A stretch of DNA of 64,000 bases, from assembly GCF_003334335.1 (NCBI RefSeq), contig NZ_QOWQ01000006.1, one strand, 5' to 3'. This document shows, in pieces, positions 1,387 to 32,931 of this stretch (positions are counted from its first letter, which is position 1; every line of letters starts with the position of its first letter). The notes under the pieces are model-generated. The model saw nothing but the letters and a program-made list of their open reading frames with translations, did no database searches and had not been told where the DNA came from. Source of the DNA: Escherichia coli. Its GTDB lineage: Bacteria; Pseudomonadota; Gammaproteobacteria; Enterobacterales; Enterobacteriaceae. Made by a program: the position numbers and the translations under genes.

Positions 1387-1490
1387 ACGTTCCTCCTTTA
1401 TATGAACTCACCGGAGCAGGCTCCGGTGAGGTGTTGTGAACTTAAGTCTGGACGAAATGCCCGAAAACGAAAGTTTGAGGCGTAAAAAGC

Positions 1491-7198: not shown

Positions 7199-7410
7199 TT
7201 GCCTGATGCGCTACGCTCATCAGGCCTACAAAATCTATTGCAACATGTTGAATCTTCGTGCGTTTGTAGGCCGGATAAGGCGTTCACGACGCATCCGGCA
7301 TTAGGTGCTCAATGCCTGATGCGCTACGCTTATCAGGCCTACAAAATCTATTGCAACATGTTGAATCTTCATGCGTTTGTAGGCGGATAAGGCGTTTTCG
7401 CCACATCAGG
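7199..7410. repeat. REP/BIME cluster: two near-identical ~105-bp units, each holding inverted REP palindromes
   Basis: Unit gcctgatgcgctacgct(c/t)atcaggcctacaaaatctattgcaacatgttgaatcttc(g/a)tgcgtttgtaggc... occurs at about 7199-7311 and again at 7313-7410; classic REP core. Confidence 0.7.
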
Positions 7411-9071: not shown

Positions 9072-10112
9072 TCATTTATCGGAAGACGCCTGCCACAGAT
9101 TCAGCTCGCCATCGGCGATATGCTGATCAATCTGCGCCAGCTCCTTGGTGCTAAATGTCAGATTATTCAGCGCCTGCACGTTCTCCTCTAGTTGCTCCGC
9201 GCGGCTGGCACCAATCAATACCGACGTCACGCGATCATCTTTCAGCAACCAGCTTAACGCCATTTGCGCCATTGATTGTCCACGCTGCTGTGCCATTTCA
9301 TTCAATAAGCGCAGGCTGTTGAGGTTGGCTTCGGTAAGCATTTTCGGTGTCAGACCACGAACTTTATTCCCTTCACGATGCATCCGTGAATCTTGCGGAA
9401 TGCCGTTGAGATATTTTCCGGTCAGCAATCCCTGAGCCAGAGGAGTAAAGGCAATACAGCCCACGCCGTTATTTTGCAGGGTATCCAGCAGGCCGCTTTT
9501 ATCCACCCAGCGGTTCAGTAAATTGTACGAAGGTTGATGAATTAACAGCGGAATTTTCCACTCGCGCAGCAACTCGACCATTTTTTGCGTCCGCTCTGGC
9601 GAGTAAGAGGAGATCCCGACATACAGCGCCTTACCGCTTTGTACCGCATGAGCCAGCGCAGAGGCGGTTTCTTCCATCGGCGTATTTTCATCGACGCGAT
9701 GAGAGTAAAAGATATCGACATACTCAAGCCCCATACGCTTCAGGCTTTGGTCGAGGCTGGCGAGCAGGTATTTACGTGAACCGCCAGAGCCGTAAGGGCC
9801 GGGCCACATATCGTAGCCAGCCTTGGTAGAGATAATCAGTTCATCGCGATAAGCGGCAAAATCCTCCCGCAGCAGGCGACCAAAGTTCTCTTCTGCGCTT
9901 CCTGGAGGCGGCCCGTAATTGTTGGCTAAATCAAAGTGCGTAATGCCCAAATCAAACGCTTTACGCAGGATCGCACGCTGTGATTCCAGCGCGTTAACGT
10001 GACCGAAATTGTGCCATAAACCGAGCGATAACGCGGGCAGGCGTAAACCACTTTTTCCGCAATAGCGGTATTGCATCTGCCCGTAACGTTCGGGATTCGC
10101 TAACCAGACCAT
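9072..10112 (-). CDS. yghZ: L-glyceraldehyde 3-phosphate reductase (aldo-keto reductase)
   Basis: 346-aa ORF with aldo-keto reductase family sequence. Confidence 0.9.
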   Translation of the reverse strand: MVWLANPERYGQMQYRYCGKSGLRLPALSLGLWHNFGHVNALESQRAILRKAFDLGITHFDLANNYGPPPGSAEENFGRLLREDFAAYRDELIISTKAGYDMWPGPYGSGGSRKYLLASLDQSLKRMGLEYVDIFYSHRVDENTPMEETASALAHAVQSGKALYVGISSYSPERTQKMVELLREWKIPLLIHQPSYNLLNRWVDKSGLLDTLQNNGVGCIAFTPLAQGLLTGKYLNGIPQDSRMHREGNKVRGLTPKMLTEANLNSLRLLNEMAQQRGQSMAQMALSWLLKDDRVTSVLIGASRAEQLEENVQALNNLTFSTKELAQIDQHIADGELNLWQASSDK

Positions 10113-10268
10113 GACCTCTCCTTTCCACCGTTCAATTTCGAAACAATGTTTCTAGTTTAGCGATTCGCCAGCGCGTATCCCGTAGTCTGGCTCACAGAGT
10201 GACGAAAAACTGGGCAAAAACACGTGCTTATGCTTTGCTTAAAAAAACACCAACTGAGGAGTGCAACG

Positions 10269-11153
10269 ATGCCGCGTTTAACCGCCAAAGATTTCCCACA
10301 AGAGTTGCTGGATTACTATGACTATTACGCTCACGGGAAAATCTCGAAACGTGAGTTCCTCAACCTTGCGGCGAAGTGCGGTAGGCGGGATGACGGCATT
10401 AGCGTTGTTTGATTTGCTCAAGCCAAATTATGCGCTGGCGACTCAGGTAGAGTTTACCGACCCGGAAATTGTTGCTGAGTACATCACGTATCCTTCGCCA
10501 AATGGTCACGGCGAGGTGCGGGGTTATCTGGTGAAGCCCGCAAAGATGAGCGGCAAAACGCCAGCCGTAGTGGTGGTGCATGAGAATCGTGGACTGAATC
10601 CGTATATCGAAGATGTGGCACGGCGAGTGGCGAAGGCGGGGTATATCGCCCTGGCACCTGACGGCTTAAGTTCCGTTGGAGGTTATCCGGGAAATGATGA
10701 TAAAGGTCGTGAGCTGCAACAGCAGGTTGATCCAACAAACTGATGAATGATTTCTTTGCCGCAATTGAGTTTATGCAACGCTATCCGCAAGCGACAGGCA
10801 AAGTGGGTATTACCGGATTTTGCTATGGCGGTGGCGTATCGAACGCGGCGGCTGTCGCGTATCCGGAACTGGCCTGCGCGGTGCCGTTTTATGGTCGTCA
10901 GGCACCCACTGCCGATGTGGCGAAGATTGAAGCGCCTTTACTACTCCACTTCGCGGAACTGGACACCCGAATCAACGAGGGCTGGCCTGCTTACGAGGCG
11001 GCGTTGAAAGCCAATAATAAGGTTTATGAGGCGTATATCTATCCGGGGGTTAATCACGGATTCCATAATGATTCCACGCCCCGTTATGACAAATCTGCCG
11101 CCGATCTTGCCTGGCAAAGGACACTGAAATGGTTCGATAAATATCTCTCCTGA
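10269..11153 (+). pseudogene. yghX: dienelactone-hydrolase-family protein disrupted by two frameshifts
   Basis: Reading frame jumps between three ORFs (10224..10412, 10318..10743, 10743..11153); GAGGA RBS before ATG at 10269; second shift lies in the A-run ccaacaaactgatg near 10740. Confidence 0.65.
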
Positions 11154-11271
11154 TAGGTTTATCTCTTACGGGATTACGTCTTAAACAAGCATGAAAAAAT
11201 AGCGTGCGCAAAAGTCGTTCTTTGCCTAAAATATCGCTATATATGACAATATATAGCGAATGAGGTGAACG

Positions 11272-11559
11272 ATGAATAACCATTTTGGTAAAGGCTTAAT
11301 GGCGGGATTAAAAGCAACGCATGCCGACAGTGCGGTTAATGTGACAAAATTCTGTGCCGATTATAAACGCGGTTTTGTATTAGGCTACTCACACCGGATG
11401 TACGAAAAGACCGGAGATCGCCAGCTTAGCGCCTGGGAAGCGGGTATTCTGACGCGCCGCTATGGACTGGATAAAGAGATGGTAATGGATTTCTTTCGTG
11501 AGAATAATTCCTGTTCTACGTTGCGCTTTTTTATGGCCGGTTATCGCCTCGAAAATTGA
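11272..11559 (+). CDS. yghW: small protein YghW
   Basis: 95-aa ORF ([24 protein letters not shown]...) upstream of hybO. Confidence 0.75.
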
Positions 11560-18295: not shown

Positions 18296-18392
18296 ATTAG
18301 CTTTCGTAGGCCTGATAAGACGCGGCAGCGTCGCATCAGGCATTGTGCACGATTGCCGGATGCGGCGTGAACGCCTTATCCGGCCTGGATGG
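18296..18392. repeat. REP-type palindromic repeats between hybG and yghU
   Basis: taggcctgataagacgcg...gcatccggcatt...gccttatccggcc REP-like units. Confidence 0.55.
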
Positions 18393-25555: not shown

Positions 25556-25600
25556 GGCTGGCGGGATACTTTTTACTATCAACGATAAGGTCAGGCTGAA

Positions 25601-26950
25601 TTGGCGGGTTTTAACATCAAACATTGGTTTGCAGATGGCGCGTTTCGCACCATTATTCGCAATAGCGCCTGGTTAGGCTCCAGTAATGTCGTGAGCGCCT
25701 TGCTGGGTCTGTTGGCGCTCTCGTGTGCCGGTAAAGGGATGACGCCCGCCATGTTTGGCGTACTGGTGATTGTGCAATCGTACGCCAAGTCGATCAGCGA
25801 TTTTATTAAGTTTCAGACATGGCAACTGGTGGTTCAGTACGGAACACCAGCATTAACCAACAATAATCCGCAGCAATTCCGCAATGTCGTCTCATTTTCC
25901 TTCTCGCTGGATATCGTCAGCGGCGCGGTGGCGATTGTCGGTGGCATTGCCTTACTGCCATTCCTTTCCCATTCATTAGGTCTGGATGACCAAAGTTTTT
26001 GGCTGGCAGCGCTCTATTGCACGCTCATTCCTTCAATGGCTTCCTCCACGCCGACCGGCATTCTGCGTGCGGTAGATCGCTTCGATTTAATTGCTGTACA
26101 GCAGGCGACGAAACCTTTTCTGCGCGCAGCGGGGAGCGTCGTAGCCTGGTATTTTGACTTTGGTTTTGCGGGTTTTGTTATTGCCTGGTACGTGTCGAAT
26201 CTGGTTGGCGGCACCATGTACTGGTGGTTTGCCGCGCGCGAATTACGCCGCCGAAATATCCATAACGCCTTCAAATTGAATCTGTTTGAGTCTGCCCGAT
26301 ACATTAAAGGCGCGTGGAGTTTTGTCTGGTCAACCAACATTGCCCACTCCATCTGGTCGGCGCGTAACTCGTGCAGCACAGTGTTGGTGGGGATCGTGTT
26401 AGGACCCGCTGCCGCCGGGTTATTTAAAATCGCCATGACATTCTTCGACGCCGCCGGAACGCCAGCGGGTTTGCTGGGTAAAAGTTTTTACCCAGAGGTG
26501 ATGCGTTTAGATCCGCGCACCACCAGACCGTGGTTGTTAGGTGTGAAGTCCGGTTTACTGGCGGGCGGAATCGGTATTCTGGTGGCGCTCGCGGTGTTGA
26601 TCGTCGGCAAGCCGCTCATTTCGCTGGTGTTTGGCGTTAAGTATCTCGAAGCGTATGACCTGATTCAGGTGATGCTGGGCGCAATTGTGATTTCGATGCT
26701 GGGCTTCCCTCAGGAGTCATTGCTATTGATGGCGGGAAAACAGCGCGCTTTTCTCGTGGCGCAAACCATCGCCTCAATCGGCTACATCGTATTGCTGTTC
26801 ATGTTCTGTCATCTGTTTGGTGTGCTGGGAGCAGCGTTTGCTTACTTCGGTGGGCAATGTCTGGACGTGGCGCTCTCGTTAATTCCAACCTTAAAGGCAT
26901 TTTTTCAGCGCCATTCCTTGCTTTATAACGCAGCCGGAGAGAAATCCTGA
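25601..26950 (+). CDS. yghQ: MOP-superfamily (Wzx/MurJ-like) polysaccharide/lipid flippase-type membrane protein
   Basis: 449-aa polytopic membrane ORF; TTG start as listed, true start uncertain; stop overlaps next start (TGATG). Confidence 0.75.
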   Translation: MAGFNIKHWFADGAFRTIIRNSAWLGSSNVVSALLGLLALSCAGKGMTPAMFGVLVIVQSYAKSISDFIKFQTWQLVVQYGTPALTNNNPQQFRNVVSFSFSLDIVSGAVAIVGGIALLPFLSHSLGLDDQSFWLAALYCTLIPSMASSTPTGILRAVDRFDLIAVQQATKPFLRAAGSVVAWYFDFGFAGFVIAWYVSNLVGGTMYWWFAARELRRRNIHNAFKLNLFESARYIKGAWSFVWSTNIAHSIWSARNSCSTVLVGIVLGPAAAGLFKIAMTFFDAAGTPAGLLGKSFYPEVMRLDPRTTRPWLLGVKSGLLAGGIGILVALAVLIVGKPLISLVFGVKYLEAYDLIQVMLGAIVISMLGFPQESLLLMAGKQRAFLVAQTIASIGYIVLLFMFCHLFGVLGAAFAYFGGQCLDVALSLIPTLKAFFQRHSLLYNAAGEKS

Positions 26951-27774
26951 TGATGAGAAAATATTTCCCGCTTGAGGCGAGCGAGCGTCTATTTGTTGCG
27001 ATTGAAGAAGATGATGTCGTTGATGCACAGGTTAGTTTGCCGCCGACTATTGCACTAAGTTGTACCACCGAAATCATTCATGATAATTACGCGTTATGCC
27101 TGCAATTCTGGCTCAATGGCGTTGATCGTCAGGAGTTACTGCGTTTAGTTCGCAAACAAGCCAAAGGCGATGAGCTGACTGCTGATGAGCGCAAACAATT
27201 TAAATACATGCGAGCGCGCTACAAGCACCTGCGTTTTGCGCAACGGCTGTATTTAAAGAAGCATCAGGCCGGATTTTTATTCGGCAAAACGACCGTTTTT
27301 CTGGGGCGTTTTCAGGACGGCTTTCGTAACGGTAAGAAAAATATTGTGTCGTATTACGGCAACCTGTTACGGATTTATTTAAGCTCTCCGGTCTGGTCGT
27401 TGGTGAACTATTCATTACGCCATAGCCAGTTAGAAAGCGTAAGCAGTTTTATTGCCTATCGGCAAAAGCAAATGCATACCCTGAAAGAGATTATTGCCAA
27501 ACCGCGACTAACCGGTAGGGAATTTCATGATGTGCGAAAAATCATCAGCCAGCAGGTTTCTTATTACGACACCTTAAGATCGCTTGATCCTGAAAATAAA
27601 GAGGCGTTACAGATATCCCGCTTCCTCGCCGCCATTAATGGCCTGATGGGAGATAAACACGACGACATGGTGGCGGATGATATGGAAAACCGCCAGTCGT
27701 ATGATGCACCGGTGGCGCTGGATAGCGATATTCGTCAGCGCTTAGAGCTGCTGATTTCGCGTTTTCCGCTATAG
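26950..27774 (+). CDS. hypothetical protein, no recognisable domain
   Basis: 274-aa ORF translationally coupled to yghQ; basic/charged, no transmembrane segment or nucleotide-binding motif seen. Confidence 0.55.
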   Translation: MMRKYFPLEASERLFVAIEEDDVVDAQVSLPPTIALSCTTEIIHDNYALCLQFWLNGVDRQELLRLVRKQAKGDELTADERKQFKYMRARYKHLRFAQRLYLKKHQAGFLFGKTTVFLGRFQDGFRNGKKNIVSYYGNLLRIYLSSPVWSLVNYSLRHSQLESVSSFIAYRQKQMHTLKEIIAKPRLTGREFHDVRKIISQQVSYYDTLRSLDPENKEALQISRFLAAINGLMGDKHDDMVADDMENRQSYDAPVALDSDIRQRLELLISRFPL

Positions 27775-27782
27775 CCGGAGCA

Positions 27783-28346
27783 ATGATGTCATCTCGTTTG
27801 ATTATTGCGTTGATTATCATGCTCTTAGCCCCGGGTGTGCAGGCACACAATTTCGTCACTGGCAAAACGGTTACCCCTGTTTATATCCAGGAAGGCGGCG
27901 AGCTGCTTCTGAATAGCGACGACGAAATTCACTACCAAAAGTGGAACAGCACACAATTAGCGGGAAAAGTCCGCATTATTCAGTATATCGCCGGGCGTAA
28001 GTCGGCGAAGAAAAAGAACTCACTGTTAATTAAAGCGGTTGAAGCGGCAAACTTTCCGCAGGATCGTTTTCAGCCCACCACCATTGTGAACACCGATGAT
28101 GCCATCTTTGGTACTGGCTATTTTGTTGTTGGCAAAATCGAAAAAAATAAACGCCGCTATCCGTGGGCGCAATTCGTTATTGACGGCAATGGACAGGGAC
28201 GCGTTGCCTGGCGCTTGCCGGAGCAGAGTTCAACCATTCTGGTGCTGAATAAAGCCGGGCAAATTCAGTGGGCAAAGGACGGCAGCCTGACGCCGGAAGA
28301 GGTAGATCATGTCATTGCGTTGGCGCAGAAACTGATCAATGAATAA
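27783..28346 (+). CDS. YtfJ-family periplasmic protein (signal peptide)
   Basis: 187 aa; N-terminal signal peptide MMSSRLIIALIIMLLAPGVQA; motifs TTIVNTDDAI and WAKDGSLTPEEV resemble E. coli YtfJ as I recall it. Confidence 0.55.
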   Translation: MMSSRLIIALIIMLLAPGVQAHNFVTGKTVTPVYIQEGGELLLNSDDEIHYQKWNSTQLAGKVRIIQYIAGRKSAKKKNSLLIKAVEAANFPQDRFQPTTIVNTDDAIFGTGYFVVGKIEKNKRRYPWAQFVIDGNGQGRVAWRLPEQSSTILVLNKAGQIQWAKDGSLTPEEVDHVIALAQKLINE

Positions 28347-28376
28347 AAAACTCAAAGGATTGAGGGCGTTAGTGAG

Positions 28377-29447
28377 ATGAAGCTGGTTGAACACTACATC
28401 ATGCGTGGTACGCGCCGTCTGGTGCTGATTATCGTCGGTTTTCTGATCTTTATTTTCGCCAGCTACTCCGCACAGCGTTATCTGACCGAAGCGGCAAATG
28501 GGACATTAGCTCTTGATGTTGTGCTGGATATCGTTTTCTACAAAGTACTGATTGCACTGGAGATGTTGTTACCTGTTGGTCTGTATGTGTCAGTTGGCGT
28601 GACGCTAGGGCAGATGTATACCGACTCGGAAATTACCGCTATCTCTGCGGCGGGGGGCAGTCCGGGACGCTTGTACAAAGCCGTTCTTTATCTGGCGATA
28701 CCGCTAAGTATTTTTGTCACCCTTCTGTCGATGTATGGTCGTCCGTGGGCTTATGCGCAGATTTATCAACTGGAGCAGCAGTCGCAGTCGGAGCTGGATG
28801 TTCGCCAGTTGCGGGCAAAGAAATTTAACACTAACGATAACGGACGAATGATCCTTTCGCAGACGGTTGATCAGGATAATAATCGCCTGACTGACGCGCT
28901 GATTTATACTTCTACTGCCAATCGAACCCGCATTTTCCGCGCCCGTTCGGTTGATGTGGTTGACCCATCACCCGAGAAACCGACCGTTATGTTGCACAAC
29001 GGCACTGCCTATCTTATCGATCATCAGGGGCGTGATGACAACGAACAGATCTACCGTAATCTGCAATTACATCTGAATCCGCTGGATCAAAGCCCTAACG
29101 TCAAACGCAAAGCGAAATCGGTCACGGAGCTGGCGCGCTCCGTCTTTCCAGCCGATCATGCCGAACTGCAATGGCGGCAAAGCCGTGGCCTGACCGCATT
29201 GTTGATGGCGCTGCTGGCCATTTCATTAAGTCGGGTAAAACCGCGGCAAGGGCGATTTTCAACGTTATTGCCACTGACGTTGCTGTTTATTGCCATTTTT
29301 TATGGCGGTGACGTCTGCCGTACGCTGGTGGCTAACGGCGCGATTCCCCTCATTCCTGGTTTGTGGTTAGTACCCGGACTCATGCTAATGGGCCTGCTGA
29401 TGCTGGTCGCACGCGACTTCTCTTTGCTGCAGAAATTTTCCCGATGA
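28377..29447 (+). CDS. LptF/LptG-family (YjgP/YjgQ) permease
   Basis: 356 aa; N-terminal transmembrane helices, large periplasmic insert, C-terminal transmembrane helices, as in LptF/LptG. Confidence 0.7.
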   Translation: MKLVEHYIMRGTRRLVLIIVGFLIFIFASYSAQRYLTEAANGTLALDVVLDIVFYKVLIALEMLLPVGLYVSVGVTLGQMYTDSEITAISAAGGSPGRLYKAVLYLAIPLSIFVTLLSMYGRPWAYAQIYQLEQQSQSELDVRQLRAKKFNTNDNGRMILSQTVDQDNNRLTDALIYTSTANRTRIFRARSVDVVDPSPEKPTVMLHNGTAYLIDHQGRDDNEQIYRNLQLHLNPLDQSPNVKRKAKSVTELARSVFPADHAELQWRQSRGLTALLMALLAISLSRVKPRQGRFSTLLPLTLLFIAIFYGGDVCRTLVANGAIPLIPGLWLVPGLMLMGLLMLVARDFSLLQKFSR

Positions 29448-30523
29448 ATGTTTTCAGCCGCTATTTAATCCGTCATCTCTTTCTCGGTTTTGCCGCCGCC
29501 GCAGGGCTATTGCTGCCGCTTTTTACCACCTTCAACCTGATTAACGAACTGGATGATGTCAGCCCGGGCGGTTATCGCTGGACTCAGGCGGTGCTGGTGG
29601 TGCTAATGACCTTACCGCGCACACTGGTCGAACTTTCGCCATTTATCGCCTTATTGGGAGGGATTGTCGGCCTGGGGCAGTTATCGAAAAACAGTGAGCT
29701 TACCGCCATTCGCAGCATGGGGTTTTCTATCTTCCGTATTGCACTGGTGGCGCTGGTTGCAGGGATATTGTGGACTGTTTCGTTAGGCGCGATAGATGAG
29801 TGGGTAGCGTCGCCATTACAGCAACAGGCGTTGCAAATCAAATCGACCGCCACCGCGTTGGGGGAGGACGATGACATTACCGGCAATATGCTGTGGGCCA
29901 GGCGTGGTAATGAATTTGTGACGGTGAAATCGCTGAACGAGCAGGGCCAGCCGGTGGGCGTGGAGATTTTTCATTATCGCGACGATCTCTCGCTCGAATC
30001 CTACATTTATGCACGCAGTGCCACCATTGAAGACGACAAAACGTGGATCCTGCATGGTGTGAATCATAAAAAATGGCTGAATGGCAAAGAAACGCTGGAA
30101 ACATTAGATAATCTTGCCTGGCAATCGGCCTTCACCAGTATGGATCTTGAAGAGTTATCAATGCCGGGCAATACTTTTTCTGTCCGTCAGCTTAATCATT
30201 ACATCCATTATTTGCAGGAAACCGGGCAACCCAGCAGCGAATACCGCCTTGCACTGTGGGAAAAACTGGGGCAACCCATCCTGACCCTGGCGATGATTTT
30301 GCTGGCTGTGCCGTTTACCTTTAGCGCCCCGCGCTCGCCAGGGATGGGTAGCCGTCTCGCTGTAGGTGTCATCGTTGGCTTACTCACCTGGATCAGCTAT
30401 CAAATCATGGTCAATCTGGGATTGCTATTTGCGTTGAGCGCACCTGTTACCGCGCTCGGTTTACCGATAGCGTTTGTGCTGGTGGCGTTGAGCCTGGTGT
30501 ATTGGTATGACAGACAACATTAA
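29444..30523 (+). CDS. LptF/LptG-family (YjgP/YjgQ) permease, second paralog
   Basis: ORF 29363..30523; start placed at MNVFSRYLIRHLF (ATG 29444 overlaps upstream stop, ATGA); same topology as previous gene. Confidence 0.7.
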   Translation: MNVFSRYLIRHLFLGFAAAAGLLLPLFTTFNLINELDDVSPGGYRWTQAVLVVLMTLPRTLVELSPFIALLGGIVGLGQLSKNSELTAIRSMGFSIFRIALVALVAGILWTVSLGAIDEWVASPLQQQALQIKSTATALGEDDDITGNMLWARRGNEFVTVKSLNEQGQPVGVEIFHYRDDLSLESYIYARSATIEDDKTWILHGVNHKKWLNGKETLETLDNLAWQSAFTSMDLEELSMPGNTFSVRQLNHYIHYLQETGQPSSEYRLALWEKLGQPILTLAMILLAVPFTFSAPRSPGMGSRLAVGVIVGLLTWISYQIMVNLGLLFALSAPVTALGLPIAFVLVALSLVYWYDRQH

Positions 30524-30524
30524 A

Positions 30525-30551
30525 CCCGCCGTGGCGCAACACCACGGCGGG
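30525..30551. terminator. GC-rich hairpin between convergent operons (probable bidirectional terminator)
   Basis: cccgccgtgg-cgcaacac-ccacggcggg lies between the LptG-like stop (30523) and the reconstructed aminotransferase stop (30558). Confidence 0.5.
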
Positions 30552-30557
30552 CTCACA

Positions 30558-31737
30558 TTACTGCTTCAGAGTAGCAAATGCCTGAATGATGGCATCGATT
30601 TGCTCACGACTGTGAGCAGCGTTTACGCTACAGCGCAGCAGCGTGATGCCTGCAGGCGCGGCAGGTGGCAGGTGGCAGGATAAGATTCACATAAACGCCC
30701 AGCGAAATAAGCTCGCGCCAGATGCGTAAACCGTCCTCTTTCGAACCGATTATTACCGGCACTACCGGGCTAATATGTGAACTTAACTCATAACCCAGTT
30801 TTTGCAGACCGTCATACAGATGGTTGGCATTATCCATCAGCTTTTGCCGCAGCTCTGGTTGTGTGGCAATAGTTCTTAACGACGAGCGCACGGTCGCAAT
30901 GCAGGACGGAGAAGGAGAGGCGGTAAAAATATACGGGCGGCTGCCGTAGCGCAGCACTTCCATCGCTTCCGAACCGACAGCAAAACCGCCAATCGAGGCC
31001 AGACTTTTACTGAAGGTGCCAACGATAATATCCACATCATCTTCAACGCCGACAGCTTCAGCCAGTCCGCGCCCCGTTGCGCCTAACACGCCAAACGAAT
31101 GCGCTTCATCGACAATCAAATAACCACCGAGACGACGTTTGATATCAACAATTTCCGCTAACGGCGCAACGTCACCGAGCATGCTGTAGATACCCTCAAC
31201 GATGATAATCGCCTCTTTCGCCCGTTCACCGAGGCGAACCATGCGCCGTTCCAGATCTTTAGCATCGTTATGGCGGAAACGAATAATTTCCGCGCCACCG
31301 AGAGAACAGGCGTCATAAATACTGGCGTGGCTGTCGGCATCCAGTAACACCACGGCGTTATGGTCGGCAAGTGCGCTGATGACGCCTAAATTAGCGGTAT
31401 AACCGGTTGAAAAAACGATAGCGGTAGGGCGATTGAAAAACTCGGCAATCTCTTTCTCTAACGCCAGGTGCGGCGCATAACTGCCGTTTGCCATACGAGA
31501 ACCGGTGGTGCCGGTACCTTGGGCCGCTAACGCGGCCTGACCTTCGCTGATGGCATCATGATTAAAGGTTAAACCGAGATAATTATTGGTCCCGGCCAGA
31601 ATCACTTTTTTATTGCCGATCCGGCCTTCGGTGGCGGAATACACTTCATCAATACAGGTGCCAAACGGTGTTAACCCGTTGTCACTAAATTGCAGTCGCT
31701 CGCCAGCAAGGCGCGCATATTTATCGTATAGCCCCAT
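30558..31737 (-). CDS. alpha-oxoamine synthase (serine palmitoyltransferase/BioF/KBL family), frameshifted near the 3' end; longest intact frame is 30628..31737
   Basis: PLP-lysine motif GTFSKSLASIGGF; listed ORF ends ...ILPPATCRACRHHAAAL; a 7-bp tandem duplication at about 30661-30674 shifts frame; removing one copy gives ...PPAAPAGITLLRCSVNAAHSREQIDAIIQAFATLKQ; ATG overlaps ACP stop (TAATG). Confidence 0.75.
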
Positions 31738-31985
31738 TATTTATTCTCCAGCCATGGAAGTAGAGTTTCCATTAATTGCGCAGGGGTTTTGACATCCAGC
31801 AGAATATTAATAGGAATGGAAATATCGAATCTGTCTTCCAGCATCATTAAGAGATCCATCACTTTGATCGACTCCAGGCCAAGATCGTTGACGAGATCGC
31901 TGTCGGGCTTAATTTCCACACCGTTTTCGACCAAATCCTGTAAACAGGAAAGGATGTAATCCATTACTATTTCACGATTTACCAT
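31737..31985 (-). CDS. acyl carrier protein
   Basis: 82-aa acidic ORF with phosphopantetheine attachment motif DLGLESIK. Confidence 0.8.
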   Translation of the reverse strand: MVNREIVMDYILSCLQDLVENGVEIKPDSDLVNDLGLESIKVMDLLMMLEDRFDISIPINILLDVKTPAQLMETLLPWLENK

Positions 31986-32016
31986 AGAAACGTTAACACA
32001 CCTTTAAACAAGACAA

Positions 32017-32931
32017 TCAAAATAGCCCGTTGCGTAATGCGTGTTCCAGGCTAATCCCGGGAAACCAATTAATATCTTCAGAAATACGGTTATTACTTGC
32101 CGACCAGTCGGCGTGGGTTAATTCACGAATTTTCGAGCGGGTCAGCATAGGTTCTTTACCTGCCAGGCGACTCAACGCGGTACTGATATCCGCAAGGCCG
32201 GTGAGTACCGGCAGAGGAATGCCAACCATTCGCACGGAACCGCAACGGGCGTCGGCGGCAAGTTGCTGTACGCGTTGCCAGTCATAGCCGCCGGCGACGC
32301 CATCGCATAATTCATAGGTTTGCGTCTGTATAGTTTCGGCGCTTAACCACTGACCCACTGCTTGCGCGAAATCGGTGACGTGCAGAAAAGAGAGCTGTGT
32401 ATCTGGCGCACCAAGTCGTGGCAGCAGGCCGCGCAGCATCCAGTCAAACAGCGGTTTTAACTCTTTATCGCCGGGACCATACACGGCTGTCGGGCGAAAA
32501 ACGCCCAGCGTAATTTCGTCCGCCATTGCTGCCAGTCGTTGCTCGGCGACGTATTTGGATTTTGCATACCAGGAGAGCTCGGGATGGCGCGCCGCCAGCG
32601 AAGAGATAAACAGAAAACGTTGGCAAAAGCCGCTCTCTTTTGCTGCTTGCATCAGGCGCAGGCTGCCGTCAACGTTACAGCGGGTGAAAATCTCTTCTTT
32701 GTGCCCGCGCACTTGCCCGGCGCAATGGACCACTACGCTGGCTCCGGCAACCAGCTCGCTAAGTGAATGAGTATCTTCCAGCGAACCGCGCACCCAGGTG
32801 AGATTATCATTGACGTGAGCGCGGGCAGTACGCGTCAATGCGCGAACGTGAAAGCCGCGGGCGAGCAGGTTATCGATAATATATTTACCGATAAACCCGG
32901 TAGCGCCCGTCACCGCGACAGTTTGATTCAT
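32017..32931 (-). CDS. NAD(P)-dependent epimerase/dehydratase-family oxidoreductase (candidate keto-reductase)
   Basis: 304 aa; Rossmann motif VTGATGFIG; catalytic YAKSK (YxxxK); ATG overlaps upstream stop. Confidence 0.75.
   Translation of the reverse strand: MNQTVAVTGATGFIGKYIIDNLLARGFHVRALTRTARAHVNDNLTWVRGSLEDTHSLSELVAGASVVVHCAGQVRGHKEEIFTRCNVDGSLRLMQAAKESGFCQRFLFISSLAARHPELSWYAKSKYVAEQRLAAMADEITLGVFRPTAVYGPGDKELKPLFDWMLRGLLPRLGAPDTQLSFLHVTDFAQAVGQWLSAETIQTQTYELCDGVAGGYDWQRVQQLAADARCGSVRMVGIPLPVLTGLADISTALSRLAGKEPMLTRSKIRELTHADWSASNNRISEDINWFPGISLEHALRNGLF

Follow-up and report, generated by a model that had tools for sequence, protein, structure and literature searches.

The yghX locus and its reading frames

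The window (the whole 64,000-nucleotide stretch of Escherichia coli DNA that was analysed) carries yghX, the gene of the E. coli YghX-family dienelactone hydrolase (DLH), between gpr (yghZ, minus strand, 9072-10112) and yghW (11272-11559), the latter followed by hybO and onwards. The gpr and yghW/hybO flanks are those of the annotated yghX in every genome inspected, and the gene therefore lies at the orthologous position. With frames named by position modulo 3, the coding sequence is read as frame 0, frame +1 and again frame 0 (Table 1): frame 0 is open from the ATG at 10269 to a TGA at 10410-10412 and once more between 10731 and the stop at 11151-11153, and frame 1 is open from 10282 to a TGA at 10741-10743. 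The earlier note, made from the letters alone, had described a good ribosome-binding site ahead of the first ATG, and this is indeed present.

The three fragments divide the enzyme between them. The frame-0 ORF that makes up fragment 1 is letter-for-letter the K-12 small protein YqhI. Fragment 2 contains the strands that precede the nucleophile, including VVVHENRG, and ends at a TGA two codons past the second lesion. Fragment 3 holds the complete Cys186-Asp233-His264 triad, in the motifs GFCYGG, ELD and NHGF, which align with the DLH structures 3F67 and 4ZV9; it starts at the native internal Met160, whose ATG shares bases with the fragment-2 stop codon (TGATG, 10741-10745). The fragments matched consecutive parts of the NCBIfam profile for the YghX family hydrolase (NF041440; 292 positions, curated cut-off 460 bits), namely positions 1-35 (E=5e-15), 34-155 (E=2e-69) and 158-292 (E=5e-78), so that the two frame changes put forward in the earlier note are real, far beyond chance. 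Scored separately, the fragments reached 55.4, 233.9 and 262.2 bits, each below the cut-off, and the intact allele described below 586.2 bits. The DLH domain (PF01738) is cut at residue 157, with the triad in fragment 3 and the N-terminal strands in fragment 2, and is not carried by any single polypeptide. The window DNA is a member of the YghX family by descent, and no protein that it encodes qualifies as one.

Table 1. Features of the yghX locus, with positions counted from the first letter of the window.
Feature	Position	Strand	Description
yghX pseudogene, whole	10269..11153	+	885 nt with two frameshifting deletions; labelled 'frameshifted' by PGAP at exactly these coordinates in colinear genomes
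Shine-Dalgarno GAGGAG	10256..10261	+	7 nt before the yghX/yqhI start ATG 10269; read from the sequence
Fragment 1, frame 0	10269..10412	+	36 native YghX residues and 11 out-of-frame residues, then TGA; identical to K-12 YqhI (b4755), 47 aa
Lesion 1	10376..10377	+	2-bp deletion (TA or AT) within codon Tyr37; true frame shifts +1
Fragment 2, frame +1	10318..10743	+	141-codon ORF; residues 21-140 are native YghX 38-157, the first 20 out-of-frame junk
Lesion 2	10736..10736	+	one C remains where intact alleles have CC (Thr157 ACC); true frame returns to frame 0
Fragment 3, frame 0	10743..11153	+	native YghX residues 160-295

Around the locus, the first 50 kb of the window are colinear with strain G1/2 at 99.97% identity. 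Between MG1655 and the window a single nucleotide differs in 1,801 bp around yghX, at intergenic position 10221, between gpr and yghX and ahead of the yghX/yqhI start (C in the window, T in the K-12 strains MG1655 and DHB4), and the yghX coding sequence is identical. Downstream, a perfect 11-nt inverted repeat (TCGCTATATAT / ATATATAGCGA, 4-nt spacer, 11234-11259) ends 13 nt upstream of the yghW start and might serve as an operator or form an mRNA hairpin near the yghW ribosome-binding site. Rfam matches at the gathering threshold, to C0719 sRNA, ES173 sRNA and naRNA4 (REP-derived) elements, lie at 43632-43853 (-), 1425-1488 (-), 18309-18385 and 7269-7339, none of them near yghX, and the scan of the whole window returned no RNA family at the locus itself. 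Promoter and terminator scans gave counts no higher than shuffled controls. Further away, at about 25600-34600, colinearity with G1/2 places a cluster of genes for a lipopolysaccharide-biosynthesis protein, lptF/lptG paralogs, spt (serine palmitoyltransferase), an acyl carrier protein, an epimerase/dehydratase and a fatty acyl-AMP ligase. Such a pathway, for a sphingolipid-like lipid, is unusual in E. coli.

Two small deletions and the intact gene

The lesions were placed by alignment with intact alleles (strains E-1246, 2A, HH97 and KL53) and with other broken alleles, ten alleles being compared in all. At lesion 1, GCG AAG TAT GCG GTA of the intact gene has become GCGAAGTGCGGTA, with the junction falling between the two positions given in Table 1. 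At lesion 2, intact CCAACCAAACTG has become CCAACAAACTG or, viewed by codons, CCA ACC AAA CTG ATG has become CCAACAAACTGATG. Both fall within the ranges proposed in the earlier note, the second to within 4 nt, and it is in the nature of the second change that the note erred: it had assigned the shift to a run of A and suggested that the length of this run be compared among strains. We discarded the A-run as the shift site, since AAA (10737-10739) is of equal length in all ten aligned alleles, CAAAC having three A's whether the gene is broken or intact, and the lost base is a C just upstream. Repeats inside yghX were limited to short ones at chance level, and no signature of repeat-mediated deletion was found there beyond T-A-T and C-C microrepeats.

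The intact allele is a single ORF of 888 nt that encodes 295 residues. Its PF01738 domain covers the full model (1-217; E=3.8e-48) and is preceded by the 36-residue segment PF23678, the Pfam 'YqhI-like' family, which matches residues 1-36. The crystal structure of YghX residues 59-294 is available as PDB 4ZV9, deposited as an 'uncharacterized protein', and in alignments GFCYGG, ELD and NHGF fall where other DLH structures have their Cys-Asp-His triad region. All of the best 120 homolog clusters are 292-299 aa long and carry both PF23678 and PF01738, and the homologs in Citrobacter, Pseudescherichia, Enterobacter, Kosakonia and Leclercia are single ORFs of 295-298 aa that align continuously through both break points, where LAA[KR]YAVGG and VDPTKLMNDFF are conserved in these five other genera. 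The alignment with intact dienelactone hydrolases that the earlier note had recommended thus upholds its reading of one gene broken twice, as opposed to homologs naturally split at the same positions.

Compared with the ClcD-type dienelactone hydrolases (carboxymethylenebutenolidases; PF01738, ClcD PDB 1DIN), YghX has the same full DLH domain and the GxCxG, D and H motifs, but differs from these cytoplasmic enzymes in an extra N-terminal region of about 58 residues, made up of the YqhI-like segment and a hydrophobic stretch. Residues ~26-58, with a conserved KREFL, the hydrophobic stretch and then ALA, look like a signal peptide, a reading supported solely by the 4ZV9 construct, which begins at about residue 57; the N-terminus of intact YghX gave no match to any Tat-signal model.

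That yghX is a frameshift pseudogene is already known, and nothing in this core finding is new. PGAP annotates one gene over the whole locus ('YghX family hydrolase, frameshifted'), whereas RefSeq for MG1655 gives a pseudogene yghX (b4658) from the ATG equivalent to window position 10318 and, as a separate overlapping CDS, yqhI (b4755). Only the annotations differ: K-12 and the window have the same deletions and the same three ORFs, with no biological difference between them. The 'pseudogene yghX locus' has been used as a dispensable chromosomal integration site (PMC7677707), and many similar papers on this use appear in the literature; our literature search found no report of a YghX protein from K-12.

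Distribution of intact and broken alleles in E. coli

We estimated allele frequencies in 5,426 complete E. coli genomes from the identity bands of short BLAST queries, which is not per-genome genotyping. The locus was at least partly present in all 5,426, and 5,416 had 80% or more of it. At site 1, a 34-mer with the lesion-1 junction at its centre had exact matches in 1,248 genomes and one-substitution matches in a further 257, giving about 1,505 of the 5,392 matched, and about 3,890 genomes aligned to it only with a 2-bp gap, as intact alleles do. At site 2, the deleted 62-mer was exact in 1,198 genomes and the intact 63-mer in 4,015, leaving about 209 genomes with an SNP in the probe, which count towards neither figure. 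By these counts, ~28% of complete E. coli genomes carry lesion 1, ~22% carry both lesions and ~72% are intact at both sites. The double lesion is common to about 1,200 of the 5,426 genomes, including K-12, W3110 and C, and broken yghX also occurs in C600 and many isolates.

About 300 genomes have the first deletion alone. A first estimate of this class from exact 60-mers (1248 - 1198 = 50) proved too low, the 34-mer search having revealed the 257 further genomes with a nearby SNP. Three strains from unrelated studies, CUVET20-PYO1, JKHS006 and 30859_5#21, carry lesion 1 without lesion 2 and over 1 kb show no further difference from the window. In such alleles (CUVET20-PYO1, L002:619-1455) an ORF of 278 aa from an internal ATG, equivalent to window position 10318, spans the whole hydrolase domain, and its residual expression in these genomes is conceivable. 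The junk N-terminus of this ORF happens to hold an RR pair before a hydrophobic segment. A query with the window's lesion 1 repaired, corresponding to lesion 2 alone, had no exact match among the 5,426 genomes, its best matches being intact alleles aligned with one gap. With both deletions repaired, the window matches at least 12 genomes with 100% identity over 1004 bp; in the one checked, KL53, yghX is annotated as intact (WP_001137768.1). The window and KL53 alleles share the context gpr-yghX-yghW-hybO and, apart from the three deleted bases, are 100% identical in DNA, but the single 295-aa ORF of KL53 is not encodable by the window allele.

Since not one substitution in 1004 bp separates it from an intact allele that still exists, the pseudogene is evolutionarily young and its decay recent. 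Of the two options in the earlier note, 'long-standing pseudogene' is therefore apt in that the gene is a pseudogene, annotated as such by PGAP and in MG1655, and widespread, and inapt as to age. The simplest history would run from the intact gene through the TA deletion to the TA and C deletions combined, on one haplotype and with no substitutions between the steps, and it is by parsimony that we infer this order of the two deletions.

The neighbourhood varies in other ways among the strains inspected. Other lineages show independent inactivations of yghX, J6 having an IS1A insertion in the gene and NCTC9041 a match confined to the final 144 bp of the region used as query. KL53 has an intact yghX and, next to it, a yghW truncated by an IS1B insertion (L011:1376-1604), and strain 2A shows the reverse of the pattern in the window, with the adjoining gpr (L-glyceraldehyde 3-phosphate reductase) annotated as frameshifted and yghX as intact (L004:1-413).

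YqhI and the present state of the locus

Intact single-ORF orthologs exist, and the window frame is disrupted relative to them. We are highly confident that yghX in the window is a recently inactivated gene, an ordinary young pseudogene from which the hydrolase is presumably not made and a short by-product peptide still is. Ancestrally, yghX would have encoded one 295-aa protein composed of the conserved 36-residue 'YqhI-like' segment, a signal-peptide-like hydrophobic stretch ending in ALA, and a DLH alpha/beta-hydrolase domain with the Cys-Asp-His triad. The frame would then have been shifted by the loss of 2 bp from codon 37 in an ancestor of the K-12/E. coli C-like lineage, such that translation from the still-active start at 10269 would now stop at the TGA at 10410 to give the 47-aa YqhI. 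The gene being dead by then, a later loss of 1 bp from codon 157 would have broken the sole remaining long ORF, that from the ATG at 10318, as continued decay would. The locus would now be a non-functional remnant, from which a functional hydrolase is presumably absent and whose promoter and ribosome-binding site would still drive the short by-product peptide.

The peptide itself has been observed: the identical 47-aa sequence was validated as YqhI by chromosomal epitope tagging in K-12, and detection of the 3'-tagged frame-0 product means that ribosomes do reach the premature stop (PMC6001520). YqhI was also among 17 small proteins with raised ribosome footprints under Mg2+ starvation, and deletion of yqhI in K-12 lowered growth yield in low Mg2+, a defect that plasmid-borne YqhI did not complement (PMC11429745). 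This translation, induction and deletion phenotype, together with an allele present in ~28% of complete genomes, would suit a locus that has become a new small-protein gene, with the first deletion retained because the 47-aa product has a function of its own. We nevertheless find such a gain of function very unlikely. The failure to complement the growth defect in trans is more in keeping with a cis effect at the locus than with a peptide function; 36 of the 47 residues are the native YghX N-terminus and the tail is out of frame; the allele is over-represented among sequenced genomes owing to laboratory K-12 derivatives; and, since no substitution has accrued since its origin, there is no signal of selection either way. 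We hold it to be very probable that YqhI is not an independent gene but the translated N-terminal stub of frameshifted yghX, occurring only in the ~28% of E. coli with the 2-bp deletion, its induction in low Mg2+ reflecting regulation of the ancestral yghX promoter and the deletion phenotype a cis effect. Given the uncomplemented defect, the locus may not be entirely inert.

Two further readings would have the broken gene still yield a hydrolase. Slippage-dependent expression, offered in the earlier note as the alternative to a pseudogene, would here take the form of programmed recoding, +1 near 10376 and -1 near 10738, or of RNA polymerase slippage, giving a regulated, low level of full-length enzyme. 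The start codon, ribosome-binding site and transcription are still active, YqhI being made, and ribosomes could pause at the rare codons AGG CGG (10383-10388, in frame 0 past lesion 1) and, at site 2, at the stop TGA 10741 after AAC. Against this, two independent events would both be needed, and the sequence at neither site favours one: the longest homopolymer in yghX is 5 nt and none lies at either lesion; the P-site codons at site 1 (AAG, TGC, GGT) cannot re-pair in the +1 frame; and a -1 shift could rescue site 2 only within the 12 nt (10731-10743) where both frames are open, a stretch lacking any X XXY YYZ heptamer. A scan for slippery sites turned up none at either lesion, the only such heptamers in the frame-1 register being at 10335 and 10689, away from both. 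Known programmed frameshifts are conserved across homologs, and E. coli genes that use them include prfB (+1 at CUU UGA C), dnaX (-1 at A AAA AAG) and IS1 insAB'. The likeness of yghX to these is superficial, being limited to homology that continues in another frame, and yghX differs from them in lacking a slippery motif, in having no stimulatory element identified, in not being conserved among homologs and in needing two shifts. Moreover, ~72% of E. coli and every other genus sampled lack the lesions, which are nested like successive steps of decay, and the peptide detected by 3' tagging is that of frame 0 (PMC6001520). Recoding is thus extremely improbable. The arrangement of fragments 2 and 3 speaks against full inactivation, in that the entire triad is in fragment 3 and the overlap of its ATG with the fragment-2 stop can allow translational coupling; made separately from the ATGs at 10318 and 10743, the two jointly cover the mature domain of 4ZV9 (residues 59-294) and might assemble as an active two-chain hydrolase. 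Yet neither ATG is preceded by a recognisable Shine-Dalgarno sequence (only GGA, 5 nt upstream, in the case of 10318), the overlap arose incidentally with the deletion, its ATG being the native Met160 codon, fragment 2 is without the native N-terminal segment, and no naturally split homolog was seen among the best 120 clusters or in the five genera. Judging by the general alpha/beta-hydrolase fold, the break in this single-domain enzyme would also come directly ahead of the helix leading into the nucleophile strand. A functional split enzyme is accordingly highly improbable, and an inactivated gene with a translated stub remains the reading that we adopt.

The explicit link between YqhI and broken yghX is the one useful by-product of this analysis. 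Their parentage is absent from the two small-protein papers: PMC11429745 does not contain the words 'pseudogene', 'yghX' or 'dienelactone', and PMC6001520 names yghX only as a neighbour. In practice, the Pfam 'YqhI-like' family is the N-terminal segment of full-length YghX hydrolases, and the origin of YqhI as a pseudogene by-product should temper the functional reading both of the peptide and of this family name. For strain engineering, the pseudogene supports the use of yghX for neutral integration in K-12 and W3110, whereas most other E. coli have an intact gene at this site. The biological importance of the finding is small, yghX being a textbook strain-specific pseudogene. With the intact, 2-bp-deletion and double-deletion alleles all extant on an otherwise identical haplotype, it provides a clean, datable decay series within one species, usable as a lineage marker for K-12-like phylogroup-A strains.
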